The notes beneath the pieces are model-generated. The model saw nothing but the letters and a program-made list of their open reading frames with translations. It did no database searches and was not told where the DNA came from. DNA of 24,545 nt, taken from assembly GCA_964419565.1 (NCBI GenBank), contig CAYQPW010000002.1, positions 63,745 through 88,289 on the forward strand, read 5' to 3'. Below are positions 2,946 through 22,050 of this stretch, piece by piece. How positions within the stretch are numbered: the first letter of the stretch is position 1; every line of letters begins with the position of its first letter. This DNA comes from an uncultured bacterium (GTDB taxonomy: Bacteria > Hydrothermota > Tepidihabitantia > SM23-42). A program made the translations under genes and the position numbers.

Positions 2946-4444
2946 TCGATAGTCGCCGGCGGTTTCGATGTAATGTCGAAGACGACCCGGTTTATGCCCT
3001 TAACTTCATTGGCGATCCGGCGCGCAACGCGTCCGAGAAATTCTTGCGGCAGCCTGACCCAATCAGCGGTCATGCCGTCCTCAGAACAAACCGCCCGGAT
3101 CGCACAGACCGAATCGTATGTTCTTTTGTCGCCCATTACACCGACACTGCCTAAAGGCAAAAGCACCGCAAAAATTTGCCAGATATCGCCATACATTTTC
3201 AGTTTGCTCGCTTCAGCGATGAGTATTTTGTCTGCCTGCCGCAAAATATTCAATCGTTTTTCAGTCACCGGTCCAACGATCCTCACCGCAAGACCTGGAC
3301 CCGGAAATGGTTTGCGCCCGATAAAAGAAGCCGGTAATTTAAGTAAACGACCAAGCTTGCGTACTTCATCCTTAAAAAGAGGCCTGAGCGGCTCGATGAC
3401 TTTCAAACGCATTTTTCGCGGTAGACCACCAACATTATGGTGGCTTTTTATTACCGCCGATGGACCGATACCCTTACCCGATTCGATCACATCAGGATAT
3501 AATGTGCCCTGAACCAAAAACTTGATGTTTTTGATCTTCCTTGCTTCGGATTCAAAGATACGGATGAATTCACGACCGATGATCTTCCTTTTTCTTTCCG
3601 GATTTTTTACGTCCGCCAATTTTCGGAGAAAGCTCTTTTTGGCATTCACTACTTTGAGGTTGATGCGAGAACCGATCGTCTGCATGACTTCTTCTTTTTC
3701 CCGATGACGCAAAAGACCATTATCGACAAAAATCCCGATAAAATTCTTGCCCACTGCTCTGGTCGTCAATGCGGCAGCAACGGTTGAATCAATGCCTCCA
3801 CTGACCGCACAAAGGACTTTATCGCGACCAACCGCACGCTTGATATTATCGACCTGTTCATCGATAAATTTGTCCATCGACCATGCTTTTTTGGCCTTGC
3901 ATACTGAAGTGACAAAATTATTGATGATCTTCTTGCCGTACTGCGTGTGATGGACTTCAGGATGAAACTGCAGTCCGTAGATATTGCCCAGCCTGAAACC
4001 TGCTATCGGCGTTGCTTTGGTCTGGGCGATCACCTGGGCATCAGACGGCAGGGATTCCACTGAATCACCGTGACTCATCCAGACATTGAAACGATTCGGT
4101 AGTCTGGCAAATAAAGGCACACTTTTCGCAGTAATGACTGCGTGACCATATTCCCGTGTCTTGCTGTGTTTTACGACTCCGCCAAGCATCTGCGCAGTAA
4201 GTTGCATACCATAACAGATCCCGAGGATGGGTACGCCCAGCTCAAAGAAATCCCTCGATAGATAATAGCGTTTCTGGTAGACGCTACCAGGACCTCCAGA
4301 GAATATCAGTCCTTCGATATCCTTGTTCTCGAGTTCATCGATATCAATGAGATGGCTGTATATCTCCGAATATACTCTGCATTCCCTTACCCGACGGGCA
4401 ATGAGCTGAGTATACTGAGAGCCAAAATCAATGACCGCGATCAT
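2936..4444 (-). CDS. guaA: GMP synthase (glutamine-hydrolysing)
   Basis: 502 aa. The N-terminal class-I glutamine amidotransferase carries the catalytic Cys in GICYGMQL. The ATP pyrophosphatase P-loop is SGGIDSTV. The C-terminal dimerisation tail ends ...KPPATIEWE, typical of GuaA. Confidence 0.95.
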   Translation of the reverse strand: MIAVIDFGSQYTQLIARRVRECRVYSEIYSHLIDIDELENKDIEGLIFSGGPGSVYQKRYYLSRDFFELGVPILGICYGMQLTAQMLGGVVKHSKTREYGHAVITAKSVPLFARLPNRFNVWMSHGDSVESLPSDAQVIAQTKATPIAGFRLGNIYGLQFHPEVHHTQYGKKIINNFVTSVCKAKKAWSMDKFIDEQVDNIKRAVGRDKVLCAVSGGIDSTVAAALTTRAVGKNFIGIFVDNGLLRHREKEEVMQTIGSRINLKVVNAKKSFLRKLADVKNPERKRKIIGREFIRIFESEARKIKNIKFLVQGTLYPDVIESGKGIGPSAVIKSHHNVGGLPRKMRLKVIEPLRPLFKDEVRKLGRLLKLPASFIGRKPFPGPGLAVRIVGPVTEKRLNILRQADKILIAEASKLKMYGDIWQIFAVLLPLGSVGVMGDKRTYDSVCAIRAVCSEDGMTADWVRLPQEFLGRVARRIANEVKGINRVVFDITSKPPATIEWE

Positions 4445-13976: not shown

Positions 13977-14106
13977 CGGTAGTAATTTTTTAGCAGCCGC
14001 ATCGACCAGATTCTTTCATGATCAGTGAGTTCTAAGAAACCTTTAGGCTTCGAAGAAAATCAAGTTATCAGCATCATGAAACAAGTAACGCGCCTTGACG
14101 CACCAC

Positions 14107-14134
14107 AATTGACATCAATATTATTTCTGCTATA
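14107..14134 (+). promoter_or_regulatory. Sigma70 promoter for the SPFH gene
   Basis: TTGACA (14107-14112), a 16-nt spacer, then TATAAT (14129-14134). SD AAGGAG lies ~10 nt upstream of the ATG at 14168. Confidence 0.55.
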
Positions 14135-14167
14135 ATCAGCTGTAAAGAATAAAGAAAGGAGTATATA

Positions 14168-15109
14168 ATGTTTATATTCGGAATCATAATCATCGTTGCA
14201 GTGCTAATCTTCAGGAATACATTCAAAGTAAAACCTGAAGACCGGCGTTTTCAGGATAAACTCAAAGCACGCCAATTAGGCTCGGTTGCCGGTTTTGTCC
14301 TGGCTGGAATTCTCATTCTTGCTTCCTTGCTGCGTATCGTACCGCCTGGTGCGGTTGGTGTCCAGGTCTTATTTGGTAAAGTGCTCACCGGTTCGACCCT
14401 GTCTGAAGGACTAAATATAGTTAATCCTTTTGTTGACCTCGAGATCATGACGGTTCGTACCCAGGCTTACACGATGTCTATAGCACTCGAAGAGGGACAG
14501 CGCTATGGCGACGACGCGATTACTTCACTTACCAAGGACGGACTTGAAGTAGCCATGGACTTAACTGTCTGGTATCATCTTGAGGCCTCTGAAGCAGCAA
14601 CGGTCTTTCAGAAGATCGGCGCCGATTATGTCGATAAGATCGTTAGACCTGCAGCCCGTACAGCGATCAGAAACACCACTGTCAAATACAATGCCGTTGA
14701 AATATATTCAGAAAAAAGAGAAGAGGTTCAAACTCAGATCAATACCACCCTGGATAGGGATTTCCAAGAAAGAGGCATTGTCCTGGAAAAGGTTCTGCTG
14801 AGGAATATAAAACTTCCAGCCAAAGTGAAAAATGCGATCGAAGCCAAGCTCGAAGCTGAACAGGATGCACAAAAAATGGAATTCGTTTTGCTGAAAGAGA
14901 TAAAAGAAGCAGACCGGAAAAAGATCGAAGCTACCGGAATTGCCGAAGCACAGCGGATCATTGCCCTTTCACTGATCGGTGAACGCGGTCGAGCTTATTT
15001 ATCCTGGAAATATCTCGAAAACCTCAAGAGCCTGTACCAGTCACCCAATAACACTATCGTTATCTCCCCTTATGACAAGAACTTCATCCCGCTCCTTCAG
15101 ATCAAGTAA
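14168..15109 (+). CDS. SPFH/band-7 domain protein (prohibitin/HflKC/stomatin-like)
   Basis: 313 aa. Two N-terminal TM segments are followed by an SPFH domain (…GLNIVNPFVDLEIMTVRTQ…VAMDLTVWYHL…). The C-terminal coiled coil is AKVKNAIEAKLEAEQDAQKME. Confidence 0.9.
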   Translation: MFIFGIIIIVAVLIFRNTFKVKPEDRRFQDKLKARQLGSVAGFVLAGILILASLLRIVPPGAVGVQVLFGKVLTGSTLSEGLNIVNPFVDLEIMTVRTQAYTMSIALEEGQRYGDDAITSLTKDGLEVAMDLTVWYHLEASEAATVFQKIGADYVDKIVRPAARTAIRNTTVKYNAVEIYSEKREEVQTQINTTLDRDFQERGIVLEKVLLRNIKLPAKVKNAIEAKLEAEQDAQKMEFVLLKEIKEADRKKIEATGIAEAQRIIALSLIGERGRAYLSWKYLENLKSLYQSPNNTIVISPYDKNFIPLLQIK

Positions 15110-15158
15110 TTCGCGAGGGTATAATATCGGGTTTTCAACAGCAACATAATAGAGCAGA

Positions 15159-15731
15159 ATGGATTTTGCGGCACAAAGAGTATTTGGCAGCGCATTGTTT
15201 ACAGATATCAGGTATTTCAACAGGATCGCTAATATCTTACCATTAGAGGAAATCCACGCATTCCTCAACGACTGTTATAAACCTATCGTCGATACGGTTC
15301 TTCAATATGAAGGAAATGTCGATAAATTCATAGGCGATGCGGTCATGGCATTTTTCGGTGCACCCCGGCAACATGATGATGATCCGCTGCGTGCGGTGAA
15401 ATGCGCCTTGGATATTCAGAAAAAAACCGAGGATATTAATATACAGTGGCGGAAATCATTTGATTTTCTAGTTGAAATCGATATCGGTATTTGTACCGGT
15501 GAAGTCTTGGCCGGCAATGTCGGACACATTAAAAAAATGCAGTATACGGTTATCGGCAAACCGGTAAATCTTGCCGCGCAATTGGTCCACATGTGTCGTG
15601 ACCACAGCGCTGAAATACTCGTCGATGAGCAAACCTACCAGAAGGCAAAAAGTGATGTTGTGTTCAGAGAAATAGGAGAAAAACTTATCATGGGGTTTGT
15701 CGAACCAGTACGTTTGTACTCGCCCGATTGA
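15159..15731 (+). CDS. Stand-alone class III nucleotidyl cyclase (CHD) catalytic domain with atypical active-site residues
   Basis: 190 aa, with an in-frame stop 9 nt upstream of the ATG. The ALFTDIRYF motif is the FxDIxGFT metal-Asp motif with GFT changed to RYF. The KFIGDAVMAFFGAP motif is KxIGDxYM, carrying the second metal Asp and the specificity Lys. In MQYTVIGKPVNLAAQL the transition-state Asn is present. The position that holds the base-specifying Asp in canonical adenylyl cyclases is Thr, and the transition-state Arg position is Gln. This alignment is from memory and needs confirmation. Confidence 0.8.
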   Translation: MDFAAQRVFGSALFTDIRYFNRIANILPLEEIHAFLNDCYKPIVDTVLQYEGNVDKFIGDAVMAFFGAPRQHDDDPLRAVKCALDIQKKTEDINIQWRKSFDFLVEIDIGICTGEVLAGNVGHIKKMQYTVIGKPVNLAAQLVHMCRDHSAEILVDEQTYQKAKSDVVFREIGEKLIMGFVEPVRLYSPD

Positions 15732-15736
15732 ATGAT

Positions 15737-16129
15737 TCATTCCAGCTGCTGTTTGCTGGCTTCTTCAAAAAAATTCAGGTCAGCGGTGAACATCTTCTCT
15801 ATGTACTTCATTTGTTCATAGCTGACCCATTGATAATCCTTAACTTCATCAGGGTTCATGGTAATCCTGTCATCGACCAATCTTACTGACCACCAGTGCA
15901 AAACATACTGTTTATCTTCCGTATAACACTCCCATATTTTTTCGATCGGGGCAACGGTGACCCCCATTTCTTCACTCGCCTCGCGTATCACCGCCTGTTC
16001 CTGGGTTTCTCCGGGTTCGATGGCGCCGGTAATCGGACACCAATAGTCCTCAGCTTCACCTCTTTTGGCGCGCTTGATAAGAAGGAATCTGTCAGCCTCC
16101 CTGATAACGATAGCAACTGCTTGTTTCAT
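15737..16129 (-). CDS. NUDIX hydrolase
   Basis: 130 aa. The Nudix box GAIEPGETQEQAVIREASEEMGV matches Gx5Ex7REUxEExGU. The gene converges on the cyclase gene with a 5-bp gap. Confidence 0.9.
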   Translation of the reverse strand: MKQAVAIVIREADRFLLIKRAKRGEAEDYWCPITGAIEPGETQEQAVIREASEEMGVTVAPIEKIWECYTEDKQYVLHWWSVRLVDDRITMNPDEVKDYQWVSYEQMKYIEKMFTADLNFFEEASKQQLE

Positions 16130-16267: not shown

Positions 16268-17290
16268 TTAGCGACCCCGGGCAAGATGCTGCTTCTGACG
16301 GAATACTGAAAGGCCATCTTTCAACAAAAGGCCTGTTGATTTTTCAGTATTCGCGCGCATACTTACATAACATCCGCCACACGTATTTGTTTTCGAGAAA
16401 TTATCGATCAAATCGGCTTGGTTTTGAAAAGGCTTGTTTTGCATTGCACAAGGGACCAGTCGACCATCAGGGTTGACCACGAGCGAACGGTAACCAGCCC
16501 GACAATTAGGCATATAACTTCCGTTTGCGAAAAAATCATAATAGCGATTTAAAACCGTTTCCGTGGTAAATACCCGTCCGGTTTTTCTCTTGAAAGCGAT
16601 CAGATGATCGATCTGTTTTCTCAAGCGCCTGAGTTCCTCTTTCGTTACGATCGATTTTGTATAATCACCCGTGCGTAAAGGCGTATAAGTGCTGAAGTTA
16701 ATGGCTACATCCCATTTGATCGCGTGCTCGGCGAGTGCCGGCAGATCATCGATATTCTCTTTTCTGATAACACTGATCAAGGTAATATCGTTGTTATGGT
16801 AATTTGCAAGCTGCGGGATAAGATCATTCAGATGTTTGTATAATCCACGAACACCACGGTTTTTATCATGACGCTGGTCAGGATAGTCGAGTGATATCGA
16901 AAATTCATCTACCCCGATCTCCTTGAGCTCGATATATTTCTCCCTGGTCAGAAACTGTGCATTCGTTACAAAAACGATATGGGGTGGTCTACCCCATACC
17001 TTGATTTCCTTGATGATATCATAGACATCACTGCGCAGAAAGGGCTCGCCGCCAGATATCTGCGCGAACAGCGGCTGTAGTTCTCTGACGAGCGCGCCAA
17101 AACGTTCAGGAGGAGCCAATTCTTCATCCGGTATAATTCCGCCTTTGTCACAATGCTGACAATTGCAATTGCATGAATGAGTTATCTCTAATGATATTGC
17201 CAGAGGTTTCTTATAGAGTACGTTATATATACCCTGAGAGGCTAGCCGAAACGCAGTGGAATAATCGATATCAGCCATATTGCATCTCAA
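16268..17290 (-). CDS. Radical SAM enzyme with C-terminal twitch/partial-SPASM auxiliary-cluster domain
   Basis: 340 aa. The CNCNCQHC motif is the CxxxCxxC [4Fe-4S]/SAM site. The QISGGEPFL motif is the GGE SAM-binding motif. The C-terminal C-x13-G-x4-C … CGGC pattern is SPASM/twitch-like. The track start is TTG at 17290; an in-frame ATG (MADIDY…) at 17278 is the more likely start. The gene is only 13-25 nt downstream of the T9SS-cargo gene. Confidence 0.9.
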   Translation of the reverse strand: MRCNMADIDYSTAFRLASQGIYNVLYKKPLAISLEITHSCNCNCQHCDKGGIIPDEELAPPERFGALVRELQPLFAQISGGEPFLRSDVYDIIKEIKVWGRPPHIVFVTNAQFLTREKYIELKEIGVDEFSISLDYPDQRHDKNRGVRGLYKHLNDLIPQLANYHNNDITLISVIRKENIDDLPALAEHAIKWDVAINFSTYTPLRTGDYTKSIVTKEELRRLRKQIDHLIAFKRKTGRVFTTETVLNRYYDFFANGSYMPNCRAGYRSLVVNPDGRLVPCAMQNKPFQNQADLIDNFSKTNTCGGCYVSMRANTEKSTGLLLKDGLSVFRQKQHLARGR

Positions 17291-20435: not shown

Positions 20436-21374
20436 ATGAGATTACGTTTTGCCATCATCTTGATTATCCTTTTCCTGATTAACTGCCCCAAAGCCTATAA
20501 ACCCGATGTTGAGAGTATCGAGGTTTTGTATCTGTCTTCATTACATGATGATATCTATCGGGACAAACCAATCCTTGCTGGAATAAAAGAACTCCACGGC
20601 TTCAAAGTCGGCCATCTCAAAACAAATCCACCATTTCTTAGCATAATCATGGGGCGTCTGGGGTTCTATGAATTGCTCAATAATACGGGTATAGATTTTG
20701 TCGTCGCCGATTCTCTCACCTTTTGGACCGATAATATCAATTACTTTCTAATACCTGAATCAATGGGTTATGCTATTAAAAACCATGAGGGGATAAGGTT
20801 TGCCATTTTGCGAAAAGACAAAGATATTCTAACTATCGATGACGAAATACGGATATCACTGGTAAAACAAAGAAGCGATGTTCTCTGGATAATCGAGAAT
20901 ACACTAATCGATATCTCGCCGGTAAAAATAAATTTCTTCATTAAAGACCGCGGTCTTACAGATACTACTATGACCGTACTAAGCGTTGAGCCAGATTCAT
21001 CATTGCTCTTTAAGATAAAAAATTTCAAAGAAATGCTTGAACAGATTTTGAATAAAAAGACCTTTCTCGATGGTAAATCCTTCAAGGAATACATCCTGTC
21101 AAGTACCGCGCAGGATGAGGGAGTTAACGTGATCCTTTATCCACAACATCTTTTTATGAATGGTATAAAACAGGACTCGGTAAGCTTGCGGGAGATCTTA
21201 AGCAATATAATATGTGAGATGAGATTCACCAAAAAAACAATGGACAAAGAACAAATACAGAACTTGAGCACCGAAAGGAAATACGAGATCTGGGGTAAGG
21301 TGGGAAAAAATAACAGTGTTCTCCTGCCCGATGGTTTCGGGACATATTTATTCGATATGTTCTACGAATTGTGA
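20436..21374 (+). CDS. Hypothetical lipoprotein
   Basis: 312 aa. The signal peptide has a lipobox-like Cys (RLRFAIILIILFLINC). No recognisable catalytic motif. AT-rich codon usage. Confidence 0.7.
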   Translation: MRLRFAIILIILFLINCPKAYKPDVESIEVLYLSSLHDDIYRDKPILAGIKELHGFKVGHLKTNPPFLSIIMGRLGFYELLNNTGIDFVVADSLTFWTDNINYFLIPESMGYAIKNHEGIRFAILRKDKDILTIDDEIRISLVKQRSDVLWIIENTLIDISPVKINFFIKDRGLTDTTMTVLSVEPDSSLLFKIKNFKEMLEQILNKKTFLDGKSFKEYILSSTAQDEGVNVILYPQHLFMNGIKQDSVSLREILSNIICEMRFTKKTMDKEQIQNLSTERKYEIWGKVGKNNSVLLPDGFGTYLFDMFYEL

Positions 21375-21378
21375 TTCT

Positions 21379-22050
21379 ATGGCAGGGAATAAATTGAAAT
21401 TCAATTGGAAAAGATGCCTCTGGGTTACTTTCTTATTTCTCTATTCAGGTTTGTTCTTCTACAACTTTTTCAGGCCTTTCAATAATTGGCTTGTTACCTA
21501 CATATACACGATGATATTAGTGTTATGGTTATCTGTAGAATATTATGAGAAGCACCTTTTTTTCCAAAGCGGATTCCTGCCGATAAATCAATATCCATGG
21601 TATTTGCGTGCGTTATTCGCACTGTTTTTTTACTCCTCTTTTATCATCGGCTGTGCGACACTTGTCTGGTGGCAGAGTAATCGCATACATCTTTACCCGA
21701 TCCTGCAAATCCCTGGTGTGCTTTTGTTAATCTACTCCATATTCATTCGCCGGCAAGCCTTCCGCAACGCTGTCCCTGATCAAATGAGTATCACTAAATT
21801 TTATGTTAGCTTGTTCTTCCTAACGATCTCGCTGGCCCTGGGTTACAGCTCATGGTTTCTTTTCCCTTATGTCATATTCATAGGCTATCCGTTTATCTTC
21901 TGGCAGCGTTTCTATGAACTAAAACATTTTAGAAAATTTACAAAATATATTTATGAAGATAAGAAAATTAAGAAGATCGACGCCAAGAACTATTTAAATC
22001 TTTGGGAAATATTTATAAATAAACATAGCAAAAAGCGAGGGAAACAATGA
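21379..22050 (+). CDS. Hypothetical polytopic membrane protein
   Basis: The track ORF starts at 21316, but ATG 21379 (MAGNKLKFNWKRCLWVTFLFLY…) lies 4 nt after the lipoprotein stop and gives a proper N-in topology. There are ~6 hydrophobic segments. No ICMT (RHPxY) or CAAX-protease motifs were found. Confidence 0.65.
   Translation: MAGNKLKFNWKRCLWVTFLFLYSGLFFYNFFRPFNNWLVTYIYTMILVLWLSVEYYEKHLFFQSGFLPINQYPWYLRALFALFFYSSFIIGCATLVWWQSNRIHLYPILQIPGVLLLIYSIFIRRQAFRNAVPDQMSITKFYVSLFFLTISLALGYSSWFLFPYVIFIGYPFIFWQRFYELKHFRKFTKYIYEDKKIKKIDAKNYLNLWEIFINKHSKKRGKQ

Follow-up and report, generated by a model that had tools for sequence, protein, structure and literature searches.

A conserved stand-alone class IIIb-type cyclase homology domain lacking two phosphate-contacting residues: a candidate bacterial pseudo-cyclase

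The stretch of DNA analyzed here, a 24.5-kb window from an uncultured bacterium, encodes a stand-alone cyclase homology domain (gene and product are referred to as CHD, with residues numbered as in the 190-aa window protein). With a probability of about one in two, CHD is a catalytically crippled or pseudo-cyclase that has been retained to bind a nucleotide or to interact with a protein, possibly the SPFH/Band 7 membrane protein encoded just upstream. Such a protein would have lost turnover, would bind nucleotide and may partner the SPFH protein; the case for it is built on the fold, a set of residue replacements, their conservation, purifying selection, synteny and orthologs devoid of a metal A ligand. 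The initial annotation of this DNA had named a "catalytically attenuated or regulatory CHD" as its fallback, and this is the reading that fits the evidence best.

15159..15731, plus strand: CHD, stand-alone class IIIb-type cyclase homology domain gene, 190 aa (open reading frame, PF00211, 3r5g match, AlphaFold2 model)

The whole protein is one domain. PF00211 covers residues 12-175 with 64.4 bits (cut-off 21.9; E 1.3e-17), and AlphaFold2 models it as one compact unit with a predicted local distance difference test score of 94.8 and a predicted template-modeling score of 0.91, in agreement with the initial description of a 190-aa open reading frame holding a lone CHD and no other domain. The closest solved relative by sequence is P. 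aeruginosa CyaB (PDB 3r5g), matched over the full length with an E value of 3e-28, and the top sequence matches among solved structures comprise CyaB, a Synechocystis Cya2-type domain, human soluble adenylyl cyclase (sAC), OaPAC, bPAC and Spirulina CyaC. Foldseek also returned 3r5g as the best match of the model (TM score 0.91, root-mean-square deviation 1.6 Å), followed by OaPAC, Cya2, CyaC and bPAC, the top 50 all being class III cyclases. With PF00211 above its curated threshold and a βααββαβ fold superposable on solved cyclases, CHD is a class III cyclase homology domain, and the combination of K56 and T130 with class IIIb enzymes as nearest characterized relatives assigns it to class IIIb.

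The HMMER alignment of CHD with CyaB pairs FTDIRYFN with FSDIRGFT, DKFIGDAVM with DKFVGDCVM, and MQYTVIGKPVNLAAQL with MDYTIIGREVNLASRL, and places T130 on YTIIG of CyaB. Individual columns were then counted in 38 members of the CHD family and in 76 canonical outgroup domains, with 66 outgroup sequences available at positions 16, 19 and 21. The residues and motifs of interest, all on the plus strand, are as follows:

15204..15206, plus strand: D16, first metal-binding Asp (FTDI); D in 37/38 family members and 64/66 outgroup sequences
15213..15224, plus strand: Y19-F20-N21-R22, remodeled phosphate-loop motif (canonical G-F-T-small), from column counts
15324..15338, plus strand: K56 (base-contacting Lys) through D60 (second metal Asp), KFIGD, from column counts
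15525..15527, plus strand: H123, family-specific His in place of a conserved Ser; H in 37/38 family members versus S in 66/76 outgroup domains
15546..15548, plus strand: T130, class IIIb Thr at the second specificity position; T in 38/38 family members
15567..15581, plus strand: N137-L-A-A-Q141, ribose Asn kept and transition-state Arg replaced by Gln, from column counts
15690..15698, plus strand: M178-G179-F180, replacing canonical K-G-K (beta/gamma-phosphate Lys), from column counts

The ligands for metal, base and ribose are largely kept. K56 and D60 are invariant in family and outgroup alike, and D16, D60, K56, T130 and N137 are each retained in 35-38 of the 38 members, one of which carries Asn at the D16 position. 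The specificity positions carry Lys (first) and Thr (second, in place of Asp), a pair which we take to be the class IIIb state under the Linder-Schultz classification. Since these residues prevail in the canonical relatives (K in 76/76 domains at position 56; T in 67/76 and S in 6/76 at position 130), the Lys/Thr pair reads as the ordinary ATP code of class IIIb (sAC/CyaB-like) enzymes and as no unassigned code, which overturns the initial proposal that it lay outside the ATP and GTP codes. In sAC-like cyclases, a Thr at the second position is reported to predict regulation by bicarbonate (PMC3383692).

The replacements fall on the residues that handle the phosphates. At position 141, where 75 of the 76 outgroup domains have Arg, the family has Gln (36 members) or Glu (2 members, P0023 and P0024, one of them from a complete WOR-3 genome). 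Arg also stands there in 242/260 non-family cyclase domains, the exceptions being mostly second, degenerate domains of tandem-CHD proteins. Position 178 is Leu in 29 and Met in 9 family members versus Lys in 64 and Arg in 10 of 76 outgroup domains, and position 180 is Phe in 37/38 versus Lys or Arg in 56/76. In the phosphate loop, the Gly of position 19 occurs in no family member as against 39/66 outgroup sequences, the Thr of the GFT turn (position 21; T in 61/66) has become Asn in 33/38, and position 22 is Lys or Arg in 36/38 where the outgroup has Thr, Ser or Ala. Both alignments, with CyaB and with the 76 domains, confirmed the register in which D16, K56, D60, T130, N137 and Q141 had been read, and with it the change of the transition-state Arg to Gln. 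The GFT turn had been misplaced by the initial annotation as RYF; it corresponds to Y19-F20-N21, and R18 is the x of DIxGFT. Three replacements had gone unremarked there, namely the K-G-K Lys to M178 (K/R in 74/76 outgroup domains), F180, and the Ser to H123.

The two lost cations have defined roles in characterized enzymes. Arg1029 of the transmembrane adenylyl cyclases (tmAC), or Arg1150 of CyaC, contacts the alpha/beta-phosphates and takes part in phosphoryl transfer, and Lys1065 (tmAC) or Lys1184 (CyaC) contacts the beta/gamma-phosphates (PMC9223806). The transition-state Asn-Arg pair has been cited as essential, and Ma1120 is nevertheless active with Ala at the Asn position (PMC4215837), so non-canonical sites are not automatically dead. 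As regards catalytic competence, CHD thus has both metal-binding Asp, an Asn-Arg pair broken by Q141, and M178 in place of the K-G-K Lys. The replacement of R141 by Gln or Glu and of K178 by Leu or Met in all 38 members is the central argument for a loss of turnover. A further phosphate ligand, of the tmAC Arg484 type, may correspond to position 126 (R/K), an assignment made by motif only. Outside the family, the 470-aa, single-domain, sensor-linked protein P0206 has Gln at the transition-state Arg position and keeps K-G-K; Arg-to-Gln replacement therefore occurs sporadically elsewhere.

Protein searches delimited a tight family of stand-alone domains of 187-203 aa with 52-90% identity, below which identity falls sharply to 39%, the level of HAMP-linked and other canonical cyclases. 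When 1.84 billion cluster representatives were searched with a profile, two family-like proteins of ~195 aa (P0121 and P0124) emerged, the rest being multi-domain canonical cyclases; with only two such proteins in so large a collection, the family is limited to a small clade. The complete genome CP070664.1, which contributed one member, bears the name candidate division WOR-3, a phylum now listed as Caldifarciminota at NCBI. No family member was among the matches listed when genome contigs were scanned with the family profile (the best was 42% identical, and the matches were generic DKFIGDAV-containing cyclases), nor among those listed for IMG/VR viral contigs, which were generic cyclases of at most 40% identity.

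In all of the ~30 loci retrieved, CHD occupies the identical slot of a syntenic block, ordered MutS–SPOR/TPR–LapB-like TPR–LapA–Ddl–(PALP)–SPFH–[GNAT]–CHD–[311-aa T9SS-tail gene]–NUDIX (convergent)–T9SS cargo–DUF2007–PGA_cap, where T9SS denotes the type IX secretion system. The flanks examined around the loci of the relatives were 10 kb or less. The CHD gene is chromosomal and passed on vertically within the uncultured phylum WOR-3, and its surroundings are a housekeeping neighborhood and no defense island, in place of the signaling or defense module that had been proposed.

The gene is under strong purifying selection. Between the window and locus L001, the ratio of nonsynonymous to synonymous substitution rates (dN/dS) is 0.053 for CHD, like that of Ddl (0.054), with 0.036 for Band 7, which argues that CHD is functional and no decaying pseudogene. 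At least five orthologous sequences (three or four variants) in the same slot are further degenerate and yet remain intact open reading frames of ~195 aa:

P0121 (locus L172): D16K, N137V, Q141A
P0271 (locus L175): D16G, N137M, Q141A
P0124 (locus L174): D16R, K56N, N137T, Q141A
Loci L199 and L179: D16V, K56N, H123P, N137T; Q141 kept in L199

In these loci the upstream SPFH protein is 79-90% identical to that of the window, and the downstream genes are the same where the contig reaches. Judged by their sequences, these orthologs are predicted to be unable to bind metal A and, on that prediction, cannot be cyclases. The CHDs of L172 (748-1335) and L175 (4558-5145) are 75% identical (dN 0.177, dS 1.09, omega 0.16), and the genes next to them are 92-99% identical with dS of 0.33-0.45. 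Selection on these two CHDs is relaxed but still purifying, and a CHD dS about three times that of the flanks suggests local recombination, allele replacement or a loss of codon constraint. Twenty family-specific residues are essentially invariant in the dead variants too, including N25, I26, L29, H33, F35 and D38 of helices α1/α2, as well as D108, C146, D156 and F180. With catalytic residues lost while the fold and the helical surface persist, a selected function other than cyclization is the most parsimonious reading.

Following the pseudo-cyclase reading, CHD would descend from class IIIb (sAC/CyaB-like) adenylyl cyclases as a stand-alone form particular to its lineage. An ancestor of the clade would have lost the two phosphate-contacting cations (the R141 and K178 positions), and some descendants would then have lost metal and base ligands, with the fold and the helical surface persisting. 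The window-type protein, in which the two Asp, Lys, Thr and Asn are kept, probably still binds ATP and metal at the homodimer interface, and with the phosphoryl-transfer Arg and the beta/gamma-phosphate Lys gone it would make little or no cyclic AMP (cAMP). It may have been kept as a nucleotide- or protein-binding regulatory subunit whose working part would be the conserved α1/α2 surface, and its candidate partner is probably the upstream-encoded membrane SPFH protein. A more specific and rather doubtful version of this proposal holds that CHD senses ATP (or bicarbonate or another nucleotide), docks via α1/α2 onto an SPFH/Band-7 scaffold and regulates the scaffold or its clients, the clade then presenting successive stages of decay (Arg and Lys, followed by metal Asp, Asn and base Lys).

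Several observations weigh against a pseudo-cyclase. Each of D16, D60, K56, T130 and N137 shows conservation of at least 90% across the 38 members; with 81/190 columns reaching that level, the chance of five out of five is ~0.015, and such conservation fits retained ligand binding and equally fits retained catalysis. The positive charges that were lost could be made up for by the gained K/R22, which adjoins the phosphate loop, and by H123. The cyclases Ma1120 and Rv1900c work without one "essential" residue, the Asn. As for the partner, with synteny extending over the whole 15-kb block, the adjacency of SPFH is inseparable from an inherited order of genes, and in some genomes a GNAT gene is inserted between SPFH and CHD.

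It is accordingly possible, if less probable, that CHD is a working, remodeled class IIIb adenylyl cyclase, a homodimer that would make cAMP with K/R22 and H123 on the metal-binding side replacing the charges of R141 and K178; it might then be the housekeeping cAMP source of the clade, possibly bicarbonate-responsive like other Thr-type enzymes. The retention of the metal Asp, Lys, Thr and Asn in 35-38/38 members and of Q141 in 36/38, a charge count kept by the family-wide gain of K/R22 and H123, the strength of purifying selection, the tolerance of Ma1120 and Rv1900c for non-canonical transition-state residues, and nearest relatives that are all active IIIb cyclases would all suit such an enzyme. 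Less easily reconciled with it are the individual importance of both Arg and Lys for catalysis, the Glu141 of P0023/P0024, which would repel the alpha-phosphate, and the orthologs that drop the metal Asp yet keep the gene; moreover, no cyclic nucleoside monophosphate (cNMP)-binding protein is encoded in the 24.5-kb window. Pairing with a second, distant CHD is an unlikely solution. Here CHD would be the C1-like half of a heterodimer, giving the two metal Asp while the partner gives Arg, Lys and the base pocket, and its own K/T/N would form a regulatory pseudo-site as in sAC and tmAC. Keeping both Asp with Arg and Lys lost is indeed the direction in which C1-type domains decay, and most of the non-Arg domains among the 260 relatives are second domains of tandem-CHD proteins, but no second CHD lies in the window or in the ~30 syntenic loci within the flanks examined (<=10 kb), K56, T130 and N137 are kept, unlike in typical C1 domains, and the dead orthologs lack the very Asp that a C1 role needs. 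Less likely again is another substrate or chemistry, whereby the palm-like fold would bind a less negative ligand (a nucleoside diphosphate or a dinucleotide) and catalyze a reaction other than the cyclization of nucleoside triphosphates. The joint loss of two phosphate-binding cations with a gain of His123 and Asn21 at the phosphate site could be explained in this way; however, base and ribose are contacted by the residues usual for ATP, and the dead variants argue against an essential metal-dependent catalysis in the clade.

The initial annotation had likened the pocket to those of the pyrimidine cyclases of Pycsar antiphage systems, and a Pycsar-type or related cyclase making cyclic CMP or cyclic UMP is a very improbable identity for CHD. 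Like PycC, CHD is stand-alone, and PADLOC PycC models match it at up to 3e-21, but the same models favor HAMP-linked and other ordinary cyclases, with 3e-26 to 1e-37 for P0040, P0042 and P0073, so these matches are non-specific. The solved PycC structure 7r65 matches CHD at only 9e-4, and no PycC is found in the Foldseek top 50. Pycsar is defined by a pyrimidine cyclase together with a cyclic-pyrimidine receptor protein, and the specificity residues of PycC are Y50/D94/R97 or F100/R142/Q144, other than the K/T pair (PMC11224242); the K/T pocket of CHD is of the class IIIb purine type and is set apart from PycC by these residues. No effector with a cyclic nucleotide-binding, TIR or transmembrane domain is near, the neighbors being SPFH, NUDIX and radical SAM genes; the initial annotation had already noted that a cNMP-binding effector is missing next to CHD. 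Genes for a cNMP-binding (PF00027) or TIR domain are absent from the 24.5-kb window and from the syntenic loci. With the fixed slot in a housekeeping block in ~30 loci and no IMG/VR member among the matches listed in addition, a Pycsar identity was rejected for the lack of an effector, the non-specific PycC matches, the different specificity residues and the housekeeping synteny.

The immediate neighborhood of CHD was described in the following features, the last two of which are found in relatives:

14168..15109, plus strand: SPFH/Band 7 membrane protein, same-strand neighbor 5' of CHD (PF01145, 1.1e-32)
15737..16129, minus strand: MutT-like NUDIX gene, convergent to CHD, 130 aa (PF00293, 2.1e-21)
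14109..14136, plus strand: promoter-like site 5' of SPFH, TTGACA-16-TATAAT with TG, 12/12 (consensus match only)
15096..15125, plus strand: weaker promoter-like site, 10/12, across the SPFH stop and the 49-bp spacer, before the CHD start (consensus match only)
L001 6605-7540; L087 6632-7567; L088 6650-7585; L089 6630-7562: 311-aa gene with a T9SS C-terminal sorting domain, between CHD and NUDIX; absent in the window
L003/L004 5445-5990; L175 4002-4547; L185 3129-3671; L218 13329-13871: 181-aa GNAT acetyltransferase between SPFH and CHD

The SPFH stop and the CHD start are separated by 49 bp and the stop codons of CHD and NUDIX by 5 bp, both distances as first reported, and a sequence scan found no terminator-like site between SPFH and CHD and no terminator-like site or hairpin between CHD and NUDIX. 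The 12/12 sigma-70-type promoter-like match sits 32 bp before the SPFH start. No NCBIfam equivalog was found for CHD or SPFH, and none reached the cut-off for NUDIX. The conservation of an SPFH-CHD-NUDIX arrangement, which the initial annotation had proposed to check, holds for its first half only. SPFH lies on the same strand 5' of CHD in every orthologous locus with enough flank, at a gap of 29-240 bp or with GNAT between, whereas no more than about half of the loci have NUDIX directly next to CHD. The 311-aa gene splits the two in L001, L087, L088, L089, L220, L217, L210, L187 and L193, and because it intervenes in so many relatives the close CHD/NUDIX convergence of the window is a local arrangement. 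On the other side, L187 has only a 38-aa GNAT remnant (3955-4068) and the window and others have no GNAT, which marks the interval from SPFH to CHD as a hot spot for indels.

NUDIX is a recurrent neighbor of CHD, and the case for a functional link between the two is weak. NUDIX enzymes cleave pyrophosphate linkages, and 3',5'-cNMPs have no such bond; a role of this gene in degrading a cyclic product, as had been suggested, is therefore chemically unlikely, and with the T9SS-tail gene in between in about half of the relatives the suggestion was not sustained. The NUDIX protein also matches the PADLOC candidate-defense model PDC-S07 (6.5e-17), which was taken as generic superfamily similarity.

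Other genes of the block vary as well. PALP, a pyridoxal-phosphate enzyme of 312-320 aa, is encoded on the opposite strand between Ddl and SPFH in most relatives and is absent from the window (Ddl-SPFH spacer 13977-14167) and from L086. A radical SAM/SPASM gene (16268-17290, minus strand) stands between NUDIX and the T9SS-cargo gene of the window; it occurs only in window-type contigs (L170) and in L210 (84% identity), being absent from other relatives, and its PADLOC pVip matches (2.5e-10) look like generic radical-SAM similarity. Two open reading frames on the plus strand, 20436-21374 (312 aa) and 21316-22050 (244 aa), have no Pfam match, and in relatives Pfam-less genes of ~317 and ~222 aa lie at the matching position between PGA_cap and FecR, the comparison being one of position. 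The window further encodes, at 966-2945 on the minus strand, a 659-aa GAF and GGDEF protein of the diguanylate cyclase type, which points to cyclic di-GMP signaling in the organism.

Precedents exist for class IIIb domains, for stand-alone CHDs and for degenerate cyclase pseudo-sites, and CHD shares features with each. CyaB (3r5g) has the same two metal Asp, the Lys, a YT(V/I)IG motif with the IIIb Thr and the VNLA Asn, but it carries R in NLASRL, G-F-T, K-G-F and a membrane-sensor fusion where CHD has Q141, Y-F-N, M-G-F and no other domain. Spirulina CyaC (1wc0) and human sAC (4clf) have the class IIIb fold in common with CHD, as well as the Thr considered predictive of bicarbonate regulation, and differ in keeping Arg1150/Arg416 and Lys1184/Lys451, neither of which the CHD family has. 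Pseudo-site domains (tmAC C1, sAC C1 and the second CHDs of bacterial tandem proteins) have likewise lost the Arg and kept the fold; these are fused to or paired with a competent partner, whereas CHD is single-domain, keeps the K/T/N pocket and has no partner in the examined loci. Mycobacterial Ma1120, another CHD without further domains, remains active although its transition-state pair is non-canonical, with Ala in place of Asn; it is a K/D enzyme that keeps the Arg, and CHD has lost Arg and the phosphate Lys. PycC proteins are small CHD proteins without sensor domains, too; their adjacent cNMP-receptor effector, other specificity residues and mobile, patchy distribution have no counterpart in CHD.

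A literature search on bacterial catalytically inactive cyclase homology domains returned nothing relevant, and a paper on the cyclase-like DUF2652 was dismissed as a precedent because it concerns a different family. No vertically conserved single-domain bacterial CHD without Arg and Lys, with decayed orthologs and a fixed SPFH neighbor, was found in the searchable literature. The finding reveals neither a new defense system nor a new nucleotide specificity. If the pseudo-cyclase reading is true, the clade would hold a natural series of one orthologous cyclase domain losing catalysis stepwise under selection, which would be useful for studying the origins of pseudoenzymes in bacterial second-messenger families. 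It would also mean that the capacity of uncultured phyla for cAMP signaling can be overestimated from "adenylate cyclase" annotations, and it would point to a possible, so far undescribed pairing of an SPFH membrane scaffold with a cyclase-fold protein.

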